Source: Stramenopiles sp. TOSAG23-2
Taxonomy: Eukaryota
Direction: 5' to 3'
DNA length: 42,621 nt
Assembly: GCA_900128395.1 (NCBI GenBank)
Contig: LT649299.1
Location: 1-42,621, forward strand
In this document: in pieces, positions 13,442 through 40,949 of the stretch
Layout of the letters: each line of letters starts with the position of its first letter
Position numbering within the stretch: the first letter of the stretch is position 1
Notes under the pieces: model-generated
Told to the model about the DNA's origin: nothing
Seen by the model: only the letters and a program-made list of their open reading frames with translations
The model's database searches: none
Program-made: the position numbers and the translations under genes

Positions 13442-13514
13442 TACTCAATACGGGGATCGAACCCGTGACCTTGGGTTTATTAGACCCACGCTCTACCGAC
13501 TGAGCTAACCAAGT
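13442..13514 (-). tRNA. tRNA-Ile(AAU)
   Basis: 73-nt cloverleaf: D-stem GCTC/GAGC, anticodon stem TGGGT/ACCCA with loop CTAATAA, T-arm ACGGG-TTCGATC-CCCGT; acceptor ACTTGGT/ATTGAGT with three G-U pairs; discriminator A. Confidence 0.93.
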
Positions 13515-25839: not shown

Positions 25840-27642
25840 TTAAGCATTAAACCATGATTGTGACTGCTCAATAAATTTGTTTGATGCATAATATGATTGT
25901 TTTGATTCTTCTAATTCTGCACGTAATCGTTGTAACTCTAACCCTTTTTCAAAATTTTCTACCAAACTTTCCATATTTGATTTTGGTGCTTCTATTTTAT
26001 TACCATGTTTTCTTTGCTTTGATCCTCTCCGTCTATTTTTACCACTCCCAGTACTTTTACCACCACTAGCCATCATACGGCTACGATTTTGATAAACATC
26101 TCTTAATATTTTATGTTCTCTACTCGTTCCTTTTTTTCTTCTTAAATTATTTTTTGATTTAGTTTTGTTGTTACTATTATTATTATTACCACCTCCATTG
26201 TTACTTTTATTATTAGCTGTTGGTGCTCCTTGCATTAATTTCTCACTATTAACTTTAAAATCAAATTGTTTTGCATACTCCATAGCTTCTCGTAATTTTG
26301 CATAATCAAATGGTCTATCTGGATTCATATCCATTTCTCGTTGTGATGGACGTTTTGCATATGCTGGATGAGAACCTTTATTTTGTACTATACCGGATGA
26401 TATTTTTCTCATTTGAGATAATTCGGATCTTAATTTAGGTAAACTTGCAACTTTTGGTAATTTCACACCTTGTGTCATTGCTGGTGGCAATGACGTAGAT
26501 GCTACATTATTATTGTTGTTATTGTTTCTAGTATTATCAATAAATGGACCTTTGCTATGAAGCATGGATTCGATACCATTATACAAGGAACCTGTACTTC
26601 TTCTTACATTATGAGAATTATGATTGATCGTTTTCTTTTTATTTGGTTGTTGCGGACCGGTTACTATATTATTTTTATTGCGTCTAAATGATTTTTTATT
26701 TTGTTTCAATGATGACTGTTTTTGCTGTTGTTGTTGCGGTTGTTGGCGGTATCTTTTTGGTTGAGATAATGGTCGTTTATAATATGTATCTTTGTAATAG
26801 CCTACACCATTTTTATCCATTTTAAATATATATCCTTTTTTAGCACCTTTAAAACATTTTGATTCTACAAAATTTTTACTTTCACCAGTATCTGGACGAC
26901 GTTGTTGAGATGTTTTTTGTGCAACTTTTGTTTGTCGTTTTGATATTGATGGTGCTGTCTTTTTCATTATTGCTGCAGATTTGAAATTGTTATTATGATT
27001 ATCATTATTATTGTTCGTACTACCTTTTTTCTTCAAAACATCTTTTGATAAGATCATATGATTATTAAATTCAGAAAAATTTTCAAAGTCATCTAAAAAA
27101 TCTAACTCATCAAATAAACTTTTTACTACTACTCTTTTTTTTGGCGGTGATATTAATGCTGATTCTTCCTCGGAGTCTTCTCCTTCATTGTCTTCTTCTT
27201 GTTGATCATGTTCCATTATTTTTTGTGGTGCTTCATCATCGTCATACCTACCAATGTTGTATTTATCGTTTGCGTCTGGTCTATATTTATCATAATCAAA
27301 ATCATCTTCGTCTTCATTATATATTTTAAAACTAACATTATTATTATATTCGTCATCTTTTTTATAGAAGTTGTTATTAGTATTAATAAATTGATTATTA
27401 TTATTATTATTATTATTATTAACATGATTATTAATACTACTAGTATTACTAGTAGTGTAATTATGATTATTATCGTATTTGCTTATCGTTGCATTTAGAC
27501 CTTTATTATGCTTTTCCATTATTTCTTTCTCACGTTGATATTTTGCAAATAATGATTCATAACCTTGTGGTTTCCGAGGTTTCACTGCAACTTTTGCAAT
27601 TTTTTCTTCCGTTCCAAGTGGAGCACCGTTGAATAAAAACAT
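25840..27642 (-). CDS. Hypothetical low-complexity protein with a short Gly/aromatic module and C-terminal coiled coil
   Basis: 600-aa ORF; FVESKCFKGAKKGYIFKMDKNGVGYYKD; LVENFEKGLELQRLRAELEESKQS. Confidence 0.75.
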   Translation of the reverse strand: MFLFNGAPLGTEEKIAKVAVKPRKPQGYESLFAKYQREKEIMEKHNKGLNATISKYDNNHNYTTSNTSSINNHVNNNNNNNNNQFINTNNNFYKKDDEYNNNVSFKIYNEDEDDFDYDKYRPDANDKYNIGRYDDDEAPQKIMEHDQQEEDNEGEDSEEESALISPPKKRVVVKSLFDELDFLDDFENFSEFNNHMILSKDVLKKKGSTNNNNDNHNNNFKSAAIMKKTAPSISKRQTKVAQKTSQQRRPDTGESKNFVESKCFKGAKKGYIFKMDKNGVGYYKDTYYKRPLSQPKRYRQQPQQQQQKQSSLKQNKKSFRRNKNNIVTGPQQPNKKKTINHNSHNVRRSTGSLYNGIESMLHSKGPFIDNTRNNNNNNNVASTSLPPAMTQGVKLPKVASLPKLRSELSQMRKISSGIVQNKGSHPAYAKRPSQREMDMNPDRPFDYAKLREAMEYAKQFDFKVNSEKLMQGAPTANNKSNNGGGNNNNSNNKTKSKNNLRRKKGTSREHKILRDVYQNRSRMMASGGKSTGSGKNRRRGSKQRKHGNKIEAPKSNMESLVENFEKGLELQRLRAELEESKQSYYASNKFIEQSQSWFNA

Positions 27643-28770
27643 TACTGTTTCTTAAAGTTATTATTATTCTGTTGGGTATTTAATTTTCTCCAAATAAAGT
27701 TAACAAGAATTATTATTGATGTCTTCGTTTATTATGTGAATGAATATGTTCTTAATTTCTTTTTAATTTTTCATATACTGAATAAAAATATACATGTAGA
27801 AATTATGAGATGTTACTACTACTATTATTATCAATATTTTATATTACTGTAATTACTCAGATATAGATCTATGTTTTAGTTTTCAATCAATATTTTTTAT
27901 TATTATTTTATTCTTTCTACTTTTTTTTTAATAATTTTAATAACGGTCTTCATAATCAACCATCCTCGCACTTATACCGGTACAGTACCTGGTACAGGTA
28001 TGATAACCGGGTAATAGCTGTTACCGAATGCTAGAGCTACTGTACAGTGTGCCTGGCCTGGTACAGTTGCTTAGTCTATCATCTATAGACGACTAGCTCT
28101 ACTGTACCAATAACAGTACAATTGAAAATCCAAAGTGAGCTTAAGGAATTAATCTTTCTGCCTTCTTTATTTTAATTTACGGGCTAGTTTAAGTTCAGTA
28201 GCGTTGTTAGATTCCAGTCAGCTTAAGCTACAACTAAACTATTAGGAACACACAGCAGGAGAGCAGCAGTAATAAGTGGTAGAAATGTTGAGTTGATAGG
28301 GATATGTCTCTTGTTTACCTGTGTACGTGATAGTATTCGCCTCGTATATGTCATTGTAGTGCTAATCTGTTAGTAAACTTGCCAAAATCGGTCGATTGCA
28401 ATGAATGGTTGTTCGTGGCTCGAAATTGCCGAAGGTAGGCCACAATTTCAAAGAAAAAGTAATAGTGAATTGGATTCATACTATGAAAAAAAATATATAT
28501 ACCTATCGATAATGCTATAGACATACTATGTAAATTGAATTTATATTATTAAACACCTCTGCTGCCTTATAAATAGACTATAGAAAAAGAGAAGAGAGTG
28601 TGTCTTTGTGATAAAACTTATAGAAAGTCAACAATATAAGCAATCAGAAATATAATAACAAATTATAGTTTCATATTTTATAATAAAACAAATACAGCAA
28701 AAGAAGAAAGCATATACATATATATATAATTTATAATTAAAAAGAAAAAACATATTACAACAAATACATC

Positions 28771-30972
28771 ATGCCACCAAAAAGAAGAAAGAAGAAATCG
28801 AAAACTAAGAAAGCGTCAGACCCAACCTTAGCAAGTGAGTTTGCAAACTTAAGCGTAAATGAACGCGCAAAGATGGCTGTAGAAGCTAAAAACATGGGAA
28901 ATACTGCATTCGCTGCTGGTAAATACAGAGAAGCTGTCGGGTGCTTCACTGATGCGGTACAACTTGATCCAAAATCAACTGTATATTTAAGTAATCGTTC
29001 CGCTGCTTACATCAAATTAGGTGAAAACAAAAAAGCACAAGCTGATGCGGAAAAATGTATCGCTTTAGACAAAAACTGGGTGAAAGGTTACATCCGTTTA
29101 GGTTCTGCTCTGTTTGCACAAGAGAAATACGAAGATTCTGTTGCTGCATTGAAACTTGGAGAAGCAATTGAACCTGAAAACAAAGCTGTTACCGATGGTA
29201 TTGAAAGAGCAAATGCTGAAATTGCTAAAATCGAAGAAGCCAATAGGGAAATTCCACCAGAAGAGCGTACTATTATTGGTATTGATTTGGGTACCACCTA
29301 TTCATGTGTTGGTGTATGGAAAGACGATGGTGTCAAAATTATTGCAAATGAAGAAGGTAGTCGTACAACCGCATCTGTTGTTGGTTTCAGTACCGACAGT
29401 GGCGAAAGGTTTGTTGGTGCACCGGCACAGCGCCAAGCTTCTATGAACCCAAAAAATACCGTATATGACGTCAAACGTTTAATTGGTAGTGGTTACGATG
29501 AAGAAAAAGTTTTGAAAGATATTGAAATGTTCCAATATGAAGTTTTGAAATCACCTGAAGGCAAGCCTATGGTGAAAGTTGAACACAATGGCGCAGATAC
29601 CCAATTAGCACCGGAACAAGTCAGTGCTATCATTTTAACTAAAATGAAACAAATCGCTGAAACATTTTTAGGCCATGAAGTTAAAAAAGCAGTTATCACT
29701 GTACCAGCATATTTCAGTGATTCCCAACGTGCAGCTACTAAAGATGCAGGTGCTATTGCTGGCCTTGAAGTCATGCGTATTATCAATGAACCAACTGCTG
29801 CTGCATTGGCTTATGGTTTGGATGATAAAGATGAAGCGAAAAAGAAAAACATTTTAGTATTTGATTTAGGTGGTGGTACATTCGATGTTTCCATTTTAGC
29901 CATTGAAAAAGGTATTTTCGAAGTTAAAGCAACTGCTGGGGATACACATTTAGGTGGTGAAGATTTTGATAATATTTTACAAAATCATGTACAAAAAGAG
30001 TTCCAACGCAAGAACAGAAAAGCTCCATCTATTGCAGACAACGCACGTGCATTGAAACGTTTAAGACAAGCGTGTGAAAAAGCAAAAAGGCAATTATCAG
30101 CAAGTACAACTGCTTCGATAGAAATAGATTCTCTTGTCGATGGTATTGATTGTGCAATAACGATTACCCGGGCTAAATTCGATAGTTTATGCGATGAACT
30201 TTTCCAAAGATGCTTAGACACTGTCAAATTTGTATTGAAAGATGCACAAATGAAACAAGAAGACATCGATGATATTGTACTTGTTGGTGGTTCCACCAGA
30301 ATCCCAAAAATTCAAACTGTACTTTCAGAATACTTCAAAGGCAAAGATTTGTGCAAGACTATCAATCCAGATGAAGCTGTTGCATATGGTGCAGCTGTTC
30401 AAGGTGCTATTTTAAGTGGTGCACGTAACGCAGCAACCGATTCTTTGTTATTAGTTGACGTAACTCCTTTGTCATTAGGTATCGAAACTACTGGACGTGT
30501 CATGAGTACTTTAATCAAACGTAACACCCCAATCCCAGTGCGTAAAACTAAAACTTACACTACGGAAGAAGATTATCAAACGGAAGTTGATGTGTGTGTA
30601 TATGAAGGTGAACGTCAGTGTGTTGATGGCAACAATTTACTTGGTAAATTCACTATCTCTGGTCTTGAACGTGCAAAAAGAAATGTTCCACAAGTTGATG
30701 TTACATTTGACATCGATAGCAATGGTATGTTGCATGTTGTGGCAAAAGATCAAGTAACAGGTGCACAAGCTGATGTTACCATCACCAATGACAGAGGTCG
30801 TTTAACCAAAGAAGAGATTGAAAAAATGGTCGAGGAAGCTGAGAAATTTGCAAAAGAAGATGAGGAACGTGTAAAGGAAATTGAACGTCAAAATGCAATG
30901 GAAAGACAACAAGAAGAAGCAAGAAGGCGCGAAATTGAACAATTAAAAGCAATGGGTATGCAAATGTCATAA
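28771..30972 (+). CDS. TPR-Hsp70 fusion protein (3 TPRs + cytosolic-type Hsp70 with short lid, no EEVD)
   Basis: TPRs AKNMGNTAF / YLSNRSAAY / WVKGYIRLG; Hsp70 signatures [49 protein letters not shown]. Confidence 0.95.
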
Positions 30973-31071
30973 ATACGCGTATGATATTTTTTTCTGTATG
31001 CATATTTTGCATGATGTAGATTTGTATAGCGACACTCTAATGTTTTATAAAATAAAAAAAAGGGGGGGGGG

Positions 31072-31214
31072 GGACGAAAACCATTGATTCTCATTGCACC
31101 AAAAAAATGTCCAATTCCATTTACACGTTGATGTATTGTTGTTGACTCTTCTTTTTTATTATCATCCCCATCATTATTACTTTTTGTTGAATCACCATAA
31201 TGCGCTGCATTTGT
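31072..31214 (-). repeat. Inverted 143-bp copy of 32690-32832, abutting a G12 run (probable chimera/assembly artefact)
   Basis: Reverse complement matches the dehydrogenase CDS except for a few bases at one end; poly-G at 31062-31073. Confidence 0.9.
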
Positions 31215-31569
31215 TAAGTGGGCGTAAGTCATAAAATATACGAAGAGTATCATATTATAAATATTAAATATAATATTATATTTAATATTTTATTAAAAAT
31301 ATTTTTAAAAAAATATTACTATACAGGTATGATGATATGTCATTTATATGTCATTTAGCATACGAATAGCATTAACTTTGTTCACTCATCTCTACGGCAT
31401 TGTTTGTTTCCATAATTATATAATTATGTACCAGGTATGGCACTATGAAGCACTGAACCCCAGGAATAAAAAAATACGCATAGCAAAGATACGAACAAAT
31501 ATTACATCTTTTTTAGGAACGAAACAAATAGGAGAGAAAGATATAGATAAATTTCACAAATCTCAAACA

Positions 31570-33100
31570 ATGCCATTCAAATTTAACAAGCGAGATGTTT
31601 TGCTTGTAACAGCTGGCGCGGTTGGTGCTTCTATTGCTACCTACGTATATTTATATTATAATAATAATAAAGTGACAAATAAAAGGATTGCCAATAATAA
31701 TAATAATAATAATAATAATAATCATAAGAAGAAGAATATTATTAAACCTTCTGAATCATCTTCTGCTTCTACTAAAATAAAAACTGGAAAAACATCTGGA
31801 ACGTATCTTATTCGTGCTCCAGTACTTCGCGAGTTTGTTGCTAAAGTATTGGTAAAGTGTGGTTGCTACAAAGAAGATGCGAAGAAAGCTGCAAAGGTAT
31901 TGATATTAGCTGATTTAAGGGGGATTGACTCTCATGGAATTGCAAGATTGATGGCCTACTTTTCAATGTTAAAAAATAATATAATTAACCCAAAACCAAG
32001 GATTAGAATAATTAAAGAAACTGCTTCGACTGCAACGGTAGATGGAGATAATGGCTTAGGATTGATTGTTGGACCAAAATGTAACGAAATTGCAATGGAA
32101 AAAGCAGAAAAAGTTGGCAGTGGATGGGTTAGTGTACGAAATACCCACCACTATGGAATTGCTGGTAGTTATTCTCTTGAATGTTTGAAAAAAGATATGA
32201 TTGGCATATCGATGACAAATTCAGGATCGGTGGTTGCTCCGTTATATGGTAAAAAACGATATTTAGGGACAAATCCAATTGCAATTGCATTTCCTTGTAC
32301 AAATAAAGGTCGACCAATGATTATTGATATGGCCACTTCCGTAGTGCCTTGGGGGAAAGTTGAAGAATGTTCCAGAACAGGGCAAAATTTAGAAGGAAAT
32401 TGGGCAATCGATTCAGATGGATTGGAGTGTACAGATCCTGATAAAGTATTAGGCGAAGGTGCTTTGATGAATTTAGGTGGTCATCGAATTAATAGTGGAC
32501 ATAAAGGTTATTGTTTAGCAGCTATGGTTGATATATTATGTGCAGTTCTTAGTGGTGGAAATTGGGGGCCCACCGTAGATGGGTTTACTACAAATGCAGT
32601 CAATTATGGTGATTCAACAAAAAGTAATAATGATGGGGATGATAATAAAAAAGAAGAGTCAACAACAATACATCAACGTGTAAATGGAAACAAATGCAGT
32701 CAATTATGGTGATTCAACAAAAAGTAATAATGATGGGGATGATAATAAAAAAGAAGAGTCAACAACAATACATCAACGTGTAAATGGAATTGGACATTTT
32801 TTTGGTGCAATGAGAATCAATGGTTTTCGTCCAGTAAATGAATTTCAACAAACAATGGATTTATGGATTAAAACATTTCGTAATTGTCCTCCAATTGATG
32901 AAACGCAACCTGTTTTGATACCAGGAGATCCAGAATATAAAGCATCGCTTGAGAGAACAAAAAATGGTATACCTGTGAAATTATCTGTTTGTTGTGATTT
33001 ACAAGATATTGCATCGGAATTAAATATACCTCCACCTTTTGATGTAAACAACATGCCTGATTTAAAGAATGTAAAAAGGGTTATTATAGATGCAACTTAA
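31570..33100 (+). CDS. Ldh_2-family (malate/L-lactate/sulfolactate/ureidoglycolate-type) dehydrogenase, interrupted by a 100-bp tandem duplication
   Basis: ADLRGIDSHG, VDGDNGLG, RNTHHYG, LGTNPIAIAFP, DMATS, HKGYCLA, GHFFGA, VLIPGDPE; N-terminal hydrophobic anchor; removing one repeat copy joins the two ORFs. Confidence 0.9.
32590..32789 (+). repeat. Exact 2 x 100-bp tandem duplication
   Basis: 32590-32689 is identical to 32690-32789; causes the frameshift. Confidence 0.95.
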
Positions 33101-34628: not shown

Positions 34629-37196
34629 ATGAAACCGAGAAAAAAAGGTGTGGCGTCTGCTGCTGGGGAAGTGGATGATCAACAAATCGTTGCAAAAGGA
34701 TTTAAAGGGAGGGGGTATGTACCAACACCACGTTCACAACTTGTCAATTTATCATACAATCAATTAAATTTACGGCGTAGAAAAATTATTTCCAAAATTG
34801 AAGGTTTAAAAGATTCAATAAAAGCGTTACGTTGCGATCCAGAAATGTTACAAGTTGCATATGAGCAAAATATAAATTTACAAAATAGGGATATAGAACC
34901 ACCATTGCCACCACCATTTGTACCAAATTTAGATGAAGTTAGTGAATATCAATTAATTGTTGATCCAAAAACATTAATTGAAGAGAGTGTATTATCATAT
35001 AATGAATATGCCAGAGAACGTTTGCGTGTTATATTTGACTTATTTGACCATCGAGAAAATGGATCTTGGAATTTGCATGATTTTGCAACGTATTGTACAC
35101 AATCATTGAGGCAGGAGGAATTTCAGCATGAATTATTTAGTCAAAGAACATATGAAACGATTATTTTAAAACGATATGCAAGTGCACAAAAAAAAATTGG
35201 TTTAGATTATGAAGGTTTCGTACGTTTGCATTGGGATTGTAGATTGACACGAACTTTACATGATGATTTAGGTATTTTGGAAATGGATTTACGTAATATA
35301 AAAGATAGAGAAAAAGAACGAATATATAATTCAATAAATTTAATAAGTAAAACAATGCCAATTCAAGTTTTGTTACCGGGAAAAACAAGGAAATTTTTAG
35401 AGAAAGAAGCGAGGAAAGAAGTACGAAGACAAGAAAGAGCAGGTGAACGTATACGAAAACCGAAAATACCACAATATTTAGAGTTGCCAGATGGTGCTGT
35501 TTTACCAGAACATGTACGTTTATTTGTATATGACTTGTATCAAATAGTTATAACGAAGGAACATGGACGTGAAATCATTTGTAAATATGGATGGACGGAT
35601 GATGTTCCATATGTTTTAATCGATGATTTAGTTATTCAAATCATGAAAGATACGCAATATATAACTTTATCAGAAATAATCAGAAAAGAGGAAGAGAAAA
35701 CACAAAAAGAATTACAAGAAAAAATGAAAGCATTAAATGATAATAAAAACAAAAGAAGAAACAATCGCAATAACAATAAGGATAATAATAATACTGAAAC
35801 AAAGAAAAAGAAAAAGGATCGTAATAATAAGAAAAATGGAAATAATATTTTAAATAAAAAAAGAAATTCTGGAGGATATGTACAAATCGTACCATTTGTT
35901 AAAGAAAAATTACAGCATGATATGCATTATTTTATTCAAAAAACTGCTTTACGTGTAAAGGTAAATTGTTTACTATTTAAAGGTAGAATGGAAGCAATTG
36001 GTAAAACATATGAAAAGCGTAGAGCAACGGATCCATTACCATTAAAGAAGAAAAAAAAGAAAAAGTTAGCCGCTTTACAAGTAGGAAAAGTTGATGATGA
36101 TCGATTAAAATCAGGCGTTGTATTGCAAAGTGAAATAGTCATTGGGGATGTTGATAAACGTATGTTTTCCAACGCATTGGGTGCTGAAAATCTTGTTATA
36201 ATGCAAGTGGATTGGTTAAAATTAGAAGCAACGGATTTAACAGAATTATTAGATTCAATTGAAGCACCAGACAAAGTTGAAACATTTATAACGGTTGATT
36301 TTGCTGTGCATGATTTCATCCCATCGGATCGTTTAGATACATTGGAAATGGGGTTTCGTGGAATTTTAAATAAATATTTAAAGCCTATTTTTCAGGAAAT
36401 ACCACAATATGATTCATTCACAATTGAATTGGTTGAAGGTGAAGGTACTCGTGTATATCGATTATGTATTTTTTTCGCTGGTAAAGCTATGCATATTAGA
36501 GGAGCGTTTGGTTTTTATATGCCTATTGCAAATTTATTACGCAGTTTATCAATTCGTTTTGATATATCACCTGGGGAGAAGAACATATTTTCACAAAATC
36601 GTGCAAAATTAGCAATATTAAATGATATCTTTAAATTACGTGGTAGCATGTCATTTACACTTCCGCGTAAACATATATTGGAATTTTTAACGTGTTTAAT
36701 GGAAGCAATTGATGAAAATCCAAATATTTTGCCTTATAAATATACAAAAGAATTTGCAAAATGGTTCCATGATTTCATTGAATGGATGGATATGCATGAA
36801 AGTGAAATAACTATGGTTACGTTATTACATTATATCAATGAATGTACATGGTTTCATGATCTTGTTGGGAGTAAATATATAGCAAAATTGGGTGAAATTT
36901 TAGAAAATCCAGGTGGGTTTGTTAAATATATTGAAGAATTATGGCAAGAAATGTTGTATATGAATTTTGAAGATACCCAAGGTCACGTTCGACGTGGTTT
37001 GCATCATTATAAGCAAAACGAATATACAAAACTTGATTATGATTTAGTATGTTTACATGGTTTGTTTGTTGATTCGATCAAAGGAATTGCAAAAGTGCAA
37101 TTTCAATGTTCCGAACGTGGATTGAAGTTTACCATGACAAATATGCAAACGCAATTGTTTAGTAAAATGGTGTTGCATAATCCTGGTGGTAAATAA
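34629..37196 (+). CDS. Hypothetical 855-aa protein with EF-hand-like pair
   Basis: LRVIFDLFDHRENGSWNLHDF and degenerate GLDYEGFVRLH; uninterrupted long ORF. Confidence 0.75.
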   Translation: MKPRKKGVASAAGEVDDQQIVAKGFKGRGYVPTPRSQLVNLSYNQLNLRRRKIISKIEGLKDSIKALRCDPEMLQVAYEQNINLQNRDIEPPLPPPFVPNLDEVSEYQLIVDPKTLIEESVLSYNEYARERLRVIFDLFDHRENGSWNLHDFATYCTQSLRQEEFQHELFSQRTYETIILKRYASAQKKIGLDYEGFVRLHWDCRLTRTLHDDLGILEMDLRNIKDREKERIYNSINLISKTMPIQVLLPGKTRKFLEKEARKEVRRQERAGERIRKPKIPQYLELPDGAVLPEHVRLFVYDLYQIVITKEHGREIICKYGWTDDVPYVLIDDLVIQIMKDTQYITLSEIIRKEEEKTQKELQEKMKALNDNKNKRRNNRNNNKDNNNTETKKKKKDRNNKKNGNNILNKKRNSGGYVQIVPFVKEKLQHDMHYFIQKTALRVKVNCLLFKGRMEAIGKTYEKRRATDPLPLKKKKKKKLAALQVGKVDDDRLKSGVVLQSEIVIGDVDKRMFSNALGAENLVIMQVDWLKLEATDLTELLDSIEAPDKVETFITVDFAVHDFIPSDRLDTLEMGFRGILNKYLKPIFQEIPQYDSFTIELVEGEGTRVYRLCIFFAGKAMHIRGAFGFYMPIANLLRSLSIRFDISPGEKNIFSQNRAKLAILNDIFKLRGSMSFTLPRKHILEFLTCLMEAIDENPNILPYKYTKEFAKWFHDFIEWMDMHESEITMVTLLHYINECTWFHDLVGSKYIAKLGEILENPGGFVKYIEELWQEMLYMNFEDTQGHVRRGLHHYKQNEYTKLDYDLVCLHGLFVDSIKGIAKVQFQCSERGLKFTMTNMQTQLFSKMVLHNPGGK

Positions 37197-39740: not shown

Positions 39741-40949
39741 TTAGATTTTTTTCACTTGAATATTTGGCAAAAATGCTTCTTCTTCTGTCATATCATATAT
39801 TAATCGACATAAATTACCATCAAGATGATTACCTTTAAACGCTTCTATTGCCTTGATTGGAATATACGCACGAACAACATATTCAATAGAGTTTACAAAC
39901 AATTCCCATTCAAACATTTTCAAACTTTCCATATCTTTTTTTTTCACAACAATATCATTTGGTTGTTTCATATTGTTGTGAAAATTTACATCCACAAAGT
40001 CAATGTGTCGCTTCAATTTTTTTTGCTTATTATTATTATTATTATTATTACTATGCATATTAGCAATAGTAGTATCATCATCAAATAAGAATGGGGATAA
40101 TTTATTTACAATATGTTTTGGTAATTTAGAAGCATCTTTTGGAACATGATTCAACCATACATTTACAAGCAATGATATACGCTTTGTATCATGAAGCAAT
40201 AAACCTTTCTTATTATTATTACTTGATGTTGATGATAATGATGGAATAAGTTCTGTGCATGCGGCATGTAGAAATCTACCATCAAATGTTATATGCCTTC
40301 CTTGTTTCGGCCAACTAATGTATACATTTTCACCTGCTTTGCCTTCAATTGAATCGGCATACATTGGCGGGGCTGTTTTTTCCATAATTATGGTTGGTGC
40401 TGCTTTTGGCAAGTTACTTATATACGTAACAGTTGCCATATGCGGGAAAATGGATACACCATGATGTTCTAAGTTATAATCTTTATCCCAATGAAAGCCT
40501 ACTCCACCATCATCAGGATCTACTACTAGTGTCCACCATTCTGCGCCCGATATCGTTGGGTCATAGTTTATACCTTTTGTATGGTGCCTAAAAATTCTTT
40601 TTACCAATTGCTCCAGCTTAGTCCTTGGTTTATCCTCAGATGCATACAAAAAGAAAGTATCACCAGAACTATAGTCATCGTCATCTTCCATCTCTCTGGC
40701 TGTAAAGGCGATATCGCAATCTTTACTAAGCGTTGCATACGATGCATCATCCATCCGTTCATCAAAAATATTTTCATAGCATTGAAAATCATAGTTTAAT
40801 GAACCGCCGAAAATTATCCTACCATGTTGATCTAAATTTATTGCAAGTTCTTCTTCTTCTTCTGAAGATGGACTCAAAGAATCTTCGTCGCTACTGTTAA
40901 TTTCTTTCTCTACTAAACGCTTTCGCTTCTTTTCTTGGATTTCATCCAT
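39741..40949 (-). CDS. Putative 2OG-Fe(II) dioxygenase-like protein
   Basis: GAEWW, FHWDKD (HxD), FDGRFLH (distal His), KRISLLVNVW (2OG-binding Arg strand). Confidence 0.65.
   Translation of the reverse strand: MDEIQEKKRKRLVEKEINSSDEDSLSPSSEEEEELAINLDQHGRIIFGGSLNYDFQCYENIFDERMDDASYATLSKDCDIAFTAREMEDDDDYSSGDTFFLYASEDKPRTKLEQLVKRIFRHHTKGINYDPTISGAEWWTLVVDPDDGGVGFHWDKDYNLEHHGVSIFPHMATVTYISNLPKAAPTIIMEKTAPPMYADSIEGKAGENVYISWPKQGRHITFDGRFLHAACTELIPSLSSTSSNNNKKGLLLHDTKRISLLVNVWLNHVPKDASKLPKHIVNKLSPFLFDDDTTIANMHSNNNNNNNKQKKLKRHIDFVDVNFHNNMKQPNDIVVKKKDMESLKMFEWELFVNSIEYVVRAYIPIKAIEAFKGNHLDGNLCRLIYDMTEEEAFLPNIQVKKI

Follow-up and report, generated by a model that had tools for sequence, protein, structure and literature searches.

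An Hsp70 with an N-terminal carboxylate-clamp TPR domain and no EEVD tail, from an apparently uncharacterised protein family

The usual link between Hsp70 and Hsp90 is a separate adaptor protein that reads their EEVD tails. A gene of Stramenopiles sp. TOSAG23-2 raises the question of what an Hsp70 would do with a reader of this kind built into its own chain. The gene lies at 28771..30972 (+) in the stretch of DNA analysed here (hereafter the window: 42,621 nt of contig LT649299.1, assembly GCA_900128395.1; all coordinates are window positions). Its product joins a domain of three tetratricopeptide repeats (TPR) with an intact carboxylate clamp to the ATPase domain and the beta part of the substrate-binding domain (SBD-beta) of an Hsp70, and ends in a shortened lid without EEVD. 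From comparison of sequences, we consider it probable that the gene is real and expressed and encodes a specialised Hsp70 paralogue of the cytosolic type, which carries its own co-chaperone-type docking module and would dock onto EEVD tails. The combination of a putative EEVD-reader module with an Hsp70 that has no tail of its own is kept in oomycetes, diatoms and green algae and in abundant uncultured marine protists. The value of the observation lies in drawing attention to an unstudied family and not in a new fold; the parts, Hsp70 and clamp TPR, are textbook ones.

Gene layout and integrity of the junction

The gene is a single uninterrupted open reading frame (ORF) of 733 codons, from the first ATG to TAA and without intron; the opposite strand of 28771-30972 holds no comparable ORF. 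Pfam places HSP70 (PF00012) at residues 168-720 (E 6.3e-220, profile positions 1-544 of 599) and TPR_1, TPR_2 and TPR_8 between residues 40 and 102 (E from 1e-11 for TPR_1 to 3e-7). No STI1/DP domain is among the 13 Pfam families that the protein matches at E up to 0.01. An AlphaFold2 model of the 733-residue protein, computed from a family alignment of 95 sequences (A1), shows clean domain boundaries, with a mean predicted local distance difference test score (pLDDT) of 86.9 and a predicted template modelling score (pTM) of 0.71. The features are as follows, with the evidence for each in brackets.

28771..30972 (+), whole gene for the TPR-Hsp70 fusion protein, 733 residues plus stop (ORF, Pfam, structure matches)
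28771..28875 (+), N-terminal extension, residues 1-35: basic cluster PPKRRKKK, then a conserved ..F/Y-A-x-L-S-x-x-E-R.. (pLDDT 45-76)
28876..29181 (+), three-repeat TPR domain, residues 36-137, with clamp K40/N44/N75/K105/R109 (Pfam, Hop alignment, model)
29182..29271 (+), capping helix, residues 138-158, and short linker, residues 159-167, forming the fusion junction (AlphaFold2 model)
29272..30420 (+), Hsp70 nucleotide-binding (ATPase) domain, residues 168-550 (Pfam, Hsc70 alignment, model)
30421..30447 (+), interdomain linker, residues 551-559, leading into ..SLLLVDV.. (Hsc70 alignment)
30448..30780 (+), SBD-beta, residues 560-670 (Hsc70 alignment, model strands 560-670)
30781..30969 (+), shortened lid, residues 671-733: helix A 680-692 and long charged helix B 694-732 (model)

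Residues 1 to about 28 are predicted to be disordered. Six TPR helices are modelled ahead of the capping helix, at residues 29-48, 52-65, 70-82, 86-99, 104-116 and 120-133. The chain ends in ...LKAMGMQMS; EEVD is absent, as are the helical bundle C-E and a Gly/Pro tail. A preliminary description of this stretch, made from its letters, had given the same anatomy (clamp TPRs, a full ATPase domain, SBD-beta and a reduced lid ending in AMGMQMS), and it was right on every point.

A fusion of two familiar proteins may also be an artefact, that is, an assembly chimera or a read-through of two adjacent genes. There are indeed signs of assembly trouble from about 100 bases past the stop (an exact 100-nt tandem duplication at 32590-32789 with an inverted copy at 31072-31215), and one RNA contig leaves the window sequence at 31073. 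Against this, the gene is one ORF with no stop or frameshift, and its junction is bridged in independent data. The stretch is present in 20 public-run rows from 14 studies (8 rows RNA libraries, all marine), of which three RNA runs, each from a different study, and one DNA run were compared with the window. The junction at 29200-29300, which the preliminary description had singled out for a check by reads, is spanned by contigs in all three RNA runs (28687-29880 with 2 mismatches; 28744-29880 and 28661-29882 with none) and by a contig of the DNA run (28567-29685), the bridging contigs having 0-3 mismatches throughout. Each RNA library also contains a second contig, running from 29937-29944 to 30973-31073 with 0-1 mismatches; the gap between the two contigs, at about 29880-29940, falls on a sharp peak in depth, a place where conserved Hsp70 sequences from other organisms accumulate. 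The compared runs list neither insertions nor deletions and no credible splice joint; such joints as are listed have short sides of 21-33 letters and are located in conserved Hsp70 stretches. At 28500-28590 and at 31139-31200 the RNA runs have no depth while the DNA run continues, which gives a weak hint that the transcript ends lie close to the ends of the ORF.

The protein itself is found elsewhere. An identical 733-residue protein (P0001; longest contig 2337 bases, cluster of 47 sequences) is present in a public protein collection, the N- and C-termini match those of the relatives P0002 and P0003, and more than 100 homologues of the same architecture come from independent sources that include finished oomycete genomes. 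An artefact is effectively excluded, and we give it next to no weight.

The fusion family and its history

A family search with residues 1-200 as query gave 1126 matches. The statements that follow refer to the best 120 of these, a fusion being called by the presence of the Hsp70 motif DLGTT.S. By this rule 109 of the 120 are TPR-Hsp70 fusions, and the other 11 are Hop-like proteins; an earlier guess that similar fusions might occur in other protists is thus borne out. The clamp is retained almost without exception among the 109 fusions (K in 108, N in 107, N in 109, K in 108 and R in 109, in chain order), and none of them has an EEVD C-terminus, although two, P0014 and P0072, have somewhat acidic ends. 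A separate search of a representative library with the whole protein gave 115,050 matches (E up to 0.001), the best 150 being mostly odd multi-copy or divergent Hsp70 models with few fusions; it was used not for the family count but as a source of rows (BiP, DnaK-like and a few with EEVD) for the trees described below.

The named members are oomycetes (Phytophthora, Pythium, Globisporangium, Bremia, Albugo, Saprolegnia, Aphanomyces and Thraustotheca), and most of the remaining ones are unnamed metatranscriptome proteins. Further clusters appear in a protein atlas, where Chlorophyta and Bacillariophyta make up most of the known members. Database names vary between 'heat shock cognate 70 kDa protein' and 'Hsp70-Hsp90 organising protein'. 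The second label, carried by the Albugo and Aphanomyces orthologues, is misleading, because the fusion, as represented by the window protein, has one TPR domain, no TPR2A and no DP/STI1, joined to a complete Hsp70. No study of an N-terminal TPR-Hsp70 fusion was found in the literature searched, in line with the preliminary description, which knew of no functional study; most subscription journals and supplements lay outside that search, so that absence from print is not proven. The family is apparently uncharacterised though visible in databases under generic or misleading names.

Conservation within the family is uneven. Median identity to the query is 44% in the TPR domain, 17% in the capping helix and linker (the lowest of all regions), 58% in the ATPase domain, 72% in SBD-beta (the highest of all regions) and 31% in the lid. 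From the end of TPR3 helix B (residue 133) to the start of the ATPase domain (residue 168) the window protein has 35 residues; the family median is 52, with a range of 30-80 (95 members). In the TPR domain only 8 columns of A1 are invariant and 4 of these are clamp residues, with N44 at 99%; judged by this pattern, selection acts on the peptide-binding groove itself. A comparison of 53 fusion rows with 13 canonical EEVD rows gives fourteen positions that tell the two sets apart, 8 of them in SBD-beta. Taken with the conservation of SBD-beta above that of the ATPase domain, these substitutions hint at a special client or partner surface. Among the family-specific substitutions in SBD-beta are E633 and K636, which stand in place of two prolines of canonical Hsp70.

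The N-terminal extension divides the family. At least five K/R among the first 20 residues were found in 52 of the 58 members whose clamp lysine is preceded by 25 or more residues, versus 2 of 53 members with short N-termini. A basic N-terminal extension is common to about half of the family, and we take its basic cluster to resemble a classical monopartite nuclear import signal.

The Hsp70 part is of the cytosolic type. The closest solved chains for residues 168-712 are cytosolic Hsc70/Hsp70 (676 bits), followed by Ssb1 (596), BiP (594), mitochondrial Hsp70 (537) and DnaK (492). The alignment with bovine Hsc70 (Hsc70 residues 6-544) takes in the ATP-site motifs, the ..LLL.DV.. linker and the entire beta-sandwich, and stops near 544, inside lid helix B. 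Residues D172, K235, E340, D365, G367-G369 and T370 are invariant in A1; D172, K235, E340, D365 and T370 align with Hsc70 D10, K71, E175, D199 and T204 and presumably have catalytic roles. Linker residues L560, L561 and D563 are invariant or nearly so. The protein has the catalytic set, the hydrophobic linker and the beta-sandwich SBD of an Hsp70, and lacks the complete lid A-E and EEVD. Both bit scores and trees group it with cytosolic and not with endoplasmic reticulum or organellar Hsp70.

Within the family the lid of the window protein is exceptional. Counted from the start of lid helix A, 54 residues are present in this protein, P0002 and P0003, and 77-120 in the other 92 of the 95 members (family median 92). 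The longer-lid members retain a short C-terminal '..WLD..' helical bundle and end just after it. The ending (A/S)MGMQMS is found also in P0002, P0003 and the fragment P0276, which are 85-86% identical to the window protein in the Hsp70 part. Since the same ending recurs in these three relatives, the lid truncation is inherited and no assembly accident. By its sequence the window protein is a new member of a short-lid sub-group (3 of 95).

The trees place the fusions together. In a quick LG+G4 tree of the Hsp70 part (82 rows), 53 of 54 fusion rows form one clade (SH-aLRT 100), with the window protein inside it, in a three-row group with P0002 and P0003 (support 100). A second tree was computed under a mixture model from 53 rows, after removal of 29: P0014, three rows with long branches and 25 more, most of which were near-duplicates. 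It unites all 33 fusion rows and P0298 in one clade (support 99). In both trees the sister of the fusion clade (support 99) is a group of proteins of about 610 residues without TPR and without EEVD (P0304, P0309, P0313 and P0329); the clade of canonical cytosolic Hsp70s with EEVD comes next, and the BiP and DnaK-like rows branch outside these groups. The two trees are most simply read as the outcome of a single old fusion, though they do not prove it. The sister group may represent the state before the fusion, or it may have lost its TPR secondarily.

These relationships bear on the order of events. The preliminary description had connected the loss of EEVD with the fusion, as a way to avoid self-binding. 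EEVD is indeed absent, but its absence is a family-wide trait shared with the TPR-less sister group, and for this reason the loss was not necessarily the later event; the TPR may have been acquired by an Hsp70 that had already lost EEVD.

Two kinds of TPR-less sequence were met along the way. P0298 (598 residues) begins directly at the ATPase domain and is located inside the fusion clade, beside P0305; it may reflect a secondary TPR loss or an alternative start. Other apparent TPR-less close relatives (64-66% identity) were considered as split forms and rejected, as they are N-terminally cut fusion fragments that start inside TPR3 or the linker.

Several known proteins share some of these traits. 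Canonical Hsc70/Hsp70 (HSPA8, plant Hsc70) form the nearest large clade and are 59-60% identical over the ATPase domain, linker and SBD-beta; for the Hsp70 part as a whole, identity is 61-66% to fusion relatives and 59-60% to canonical plant Hsc70s. Unlike them, the fusion has an N-terminal TPR, a lid cut after helix B, no Gly/Pro-rich tail, no EEVD and the 14 family-specific substitutions. The Hsp70T proteins of plants and green algae (T1 types I-IV, T2) are described in the main text of PMC10687569 as cytosolic-type, with EEVD absent and SBD-alpha altered or missing; in type II the C-terminal domain is deleted and SBD-alpha atypical, and type III is lidless. The feature they are seen to have in common with the fusion family is the absence of EEVD. 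In the available text of that paper TPR is mentioned only as an EEVD partner, and its main text contains no occurrence of 'N-terminal extension', 'additional domain', 'Ostreococcus' or 'Micromonas'.

An Hsp70-superfamily ATPase domain and a TPR are also united in one chain in Leishmania HRP4, for which contact with Hsp70/Hsp90 has been proposed (available text of PMC4943205). In HRP4, unlike in the fusion, the TPR is C-terminal, the ATPase domain is divergent and an SBD is lacking, and the protein is limited to some trypanosomatids (PMC4943205). Bacterial clusters of the atlas (Thermodesulfobacteriota, Bacteroidota, Pseudomonadota and Actinomycetota) also combine Hsp70 and TPR Pfam families in one protein, with feature scores of 0.85-0.90. 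These bacterial proteins are DnaK-like, their likeness to the fusion is one of Pfam family content alone, and they probably represent an independent fusion with another domain order.

Ligand of the clamp and role of the TPR domain

The clamp residues, K40 and N44 in AKNMGN, N75 in SNRS, and K105 and R109 in KGYIR, fit the consensus K5N9-N6-K2R6, as worded in the available text of PMC2939883, exactly: they occupy positions 5 and 9 of TPR1 (start 36), position 6 of TPR2 (start 70) and positions 2 and 6 of TPR3 (start 104). Residues 37-154 align with residues 5-122 of human Hop TPR1 at 64 bits; Hop TPR2B reaches 62 bits and TPR2A only 39. The clamp domains of SGT, CHIP, PP5, RPAP3 and Tom70/71 score 50-67 bits (CHIP 60, PP5 61), and the best non-fusion match of the TPR part is a plant Hop (47% identity). 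In Sti1, Hsp70 is bound by TPR1 and TPR2B and Hsp90 by TPR2A (available text of PMC4403447). The scores for Hop TPR1 and TPR2B lean slightly towards Hsp70 as the partner of the fusion.

With Hop/Sti1 the fusion shares the three-repeat TPR with its clamp, aligning to TPR1 and TPR2B, and differs in layout: where Hop runs TPR1-DP1-TPR2A-TPR2B-DP2, the fusion has one TPR domain, no DP/STI1 and a complete Hsp70. In PP5, CHIP, SGT and RPAP3 (58-67 bits) a single clamp TPR likewise brings a working domain to Hsp70/Hsp90 tails. The working domain of the fusion, unlike theirs, is itself an Hsp70, so that a chaperone would be recruited to a chaperone.

Under the docking reading that we favour, the TPR groove would grip, in trans, the (I/M)EEVD-COOH at the free C-terminus of another chaperone, a canonical Hsp70 and/or Hsp90. 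Docking would tether the fusion Hsp70 directly to another chaperone, and clients could pass between the two without a separate adaptor. Having no EEVD of its own, the fusion protein would not be held by its own TPR or by that of a sister molecule, and it would be invisible to the co-chaperones that read EEVD (Hop, CHIP, PP5 and class B J-proteins). The basic PPKRRKKK N-terminus may in addition direct the protein to the nucleus or bind acidic partners. Docking onto the EEVD of another Hsp70 or of Hsp90, with Hop bypassed, had been proposed in the preliminary description. The exact, near-invariant clamp and the lack of any member with EEVD are consistent with such docking, but the choice between Hsp70 and Hsp90 is not separated by the TPR scores. 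A complex prediction of the TPR (residues 25-165) with the last 40 residues of the EEVD-ending Hsp70 P0321, made without controls and without a family alignment, scored 0.08 and 0.10 against a mark of 0.34 and speaks neither for binding nor against it.

Several points weigh against docking onto chaperone tails, or against parts of that account. The scores of Hop TPR1 (64 bits), Hop TPR2B (62), CHIP (60) and PP5 (61) are too close to separate Hsp70-type from Hsp90-type specificity, and CHIP has a dual specificity. Contigs from RNA libraries are no strict proof of transcription. The fusion P0014, which has the lowest identity to the query (46%), is located near the root of the LG+G4 tree, outside the clade, and was dropped before the mixture-model tree. 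The canonical Hsp70 rows of the trees are mostly from plants, with few non-plant ones, and no Ssb or Hsp110 rows are included. Finally, clamp-type TPR domains also bind non-chaperone acidic C-termini (available text of PMC11259706), so that the clamp proves an acidic C-terminal ligand at most, and not Hsp70 or Hsp90.

This last point opens a different role. The clamp may bind a non-chaperone acidic C-terminus, or the TPR may serve localisation, with a basic N-terminus that would be suitable for nucleus, nucleolus or ribosome; the protein would in that case be a site-specific Hsp70 and not a chaperone bridge. Hsp70s without EEVD that work at fixed sites exist, the ribosome-bound Ssb being an example. 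The basic cluster, conserved in nearly all long-extension members (52 of 58) and rare in short ones (2 of 53), fits a localised protein, and the high conservation of SBD-beta with its 8 family-specific substitutions hints at a special client set; EEVD-like motifs outside the chaperones are known ligands of clamp TPRs (PMC11259706, available text). About half of the family, however, keeps the clamp without the basic extension, and the nearest relatives of the TPR are all domains of Hsp70/Hsp90 co-chaperones. We regard a site-specific Hsp70 as unlikely, though as a reading to be kept in mind.

The TPR may instead act within the molecule. PP5 is autoinhibited by its TPR domain. By analogy, the TPR of the fusion could rest on the ATPase domain or SBD and restrain the Hsp70 until displaced by an EEVD tail or some other ligand; docking would then be a switch and not a tether. 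In the model, TPR and ATPase domain are joined by just the capping helix and a linker of about 10 residues, and the whole-chain pTM of 0.71 would permit a defined mutual arrangement; PP5 is also among the clamp TPR matches (61 bits). A fixed docking geometry is, however, made less likely by a capping-helix and linker segment that is the least conserved of the protein and varies from 30 to 80 residues over 95 members. Such a switch would also require EEVD-type binding and is a refinement of the docking reading rather than a true alternative to it. A PP5-like regulator appears to us a rather poor bet.

If the clamp of the fusion does bind EEVD, the family would be a natural experiment in rewiring the Hsp70/Hsp90 network. 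It would bear on Hsp70-Hsp70 and Hsp70-Hsp90 tethering, on Hop-independent client transfer and on the lid length that an Hsp70 needs, and would offer a ready-made tool for chaperone research. A bolder version, which we put forward as speculation with little expectation that it will hold, is that the family forms a self-contained relay chaperone that grips the EEVD tail of Hsp90 or of a canonical Hsp70 and passes clients without Hop, its basic-N-terminus half, to which the window protein belongs, carrying in addition a nuclear import signal and ferrying or anchoring EEVD-bearing chaperones in the nucleus. Were this true, a chaperone that recruits chaperones would also be addressed to a compartment, a kind of wiring that is not known to have been described for any Hsp70.

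Other sequences of the window

Downstream of the fusion gene, the tandem repeat units at 32590-32689 and 32690-32789 are 100% identical and shift the frame of a neighbouring Ldh_2-family gene, which is read in one frame from 31348 to 32712 and then in a different one at 32684-33100. The duplication spot (32689-32832) has a 144-nt inverted copy (98%) at 31072-31215, some 100 bases beyond the stop codon of the Hsp70 gene. The duplication and its inverted copy look like an assembly or amplification chimera rather than biology, and the Hsp70 ORF is unaffected.

The only Rfam/ARAGORN match in the window is a tRNA-Ile gene (anticodon AAT) at 13442-13514 (-). Three long ORFs have no Pfam family at E up to 1e-5: 25840-27642 (-) of 600 residues, which is rich in Asn and Gln runs, 34629-37196 (+) of 855 residues, and 39741-40949 (-) of 402 residues. 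Genes for a NIPA transporter, a WW protein, an RCC1-repeat protein, Nop53, a kinase, a GMC oxidoreductase, a glycosyltransferase, an ankyrin protein and a dual-specificity phosphatase were also identified. The window is a compact, AT-rich eukaryotic region (28-37% GC) in which most genes are long uninterrupted ORFs.

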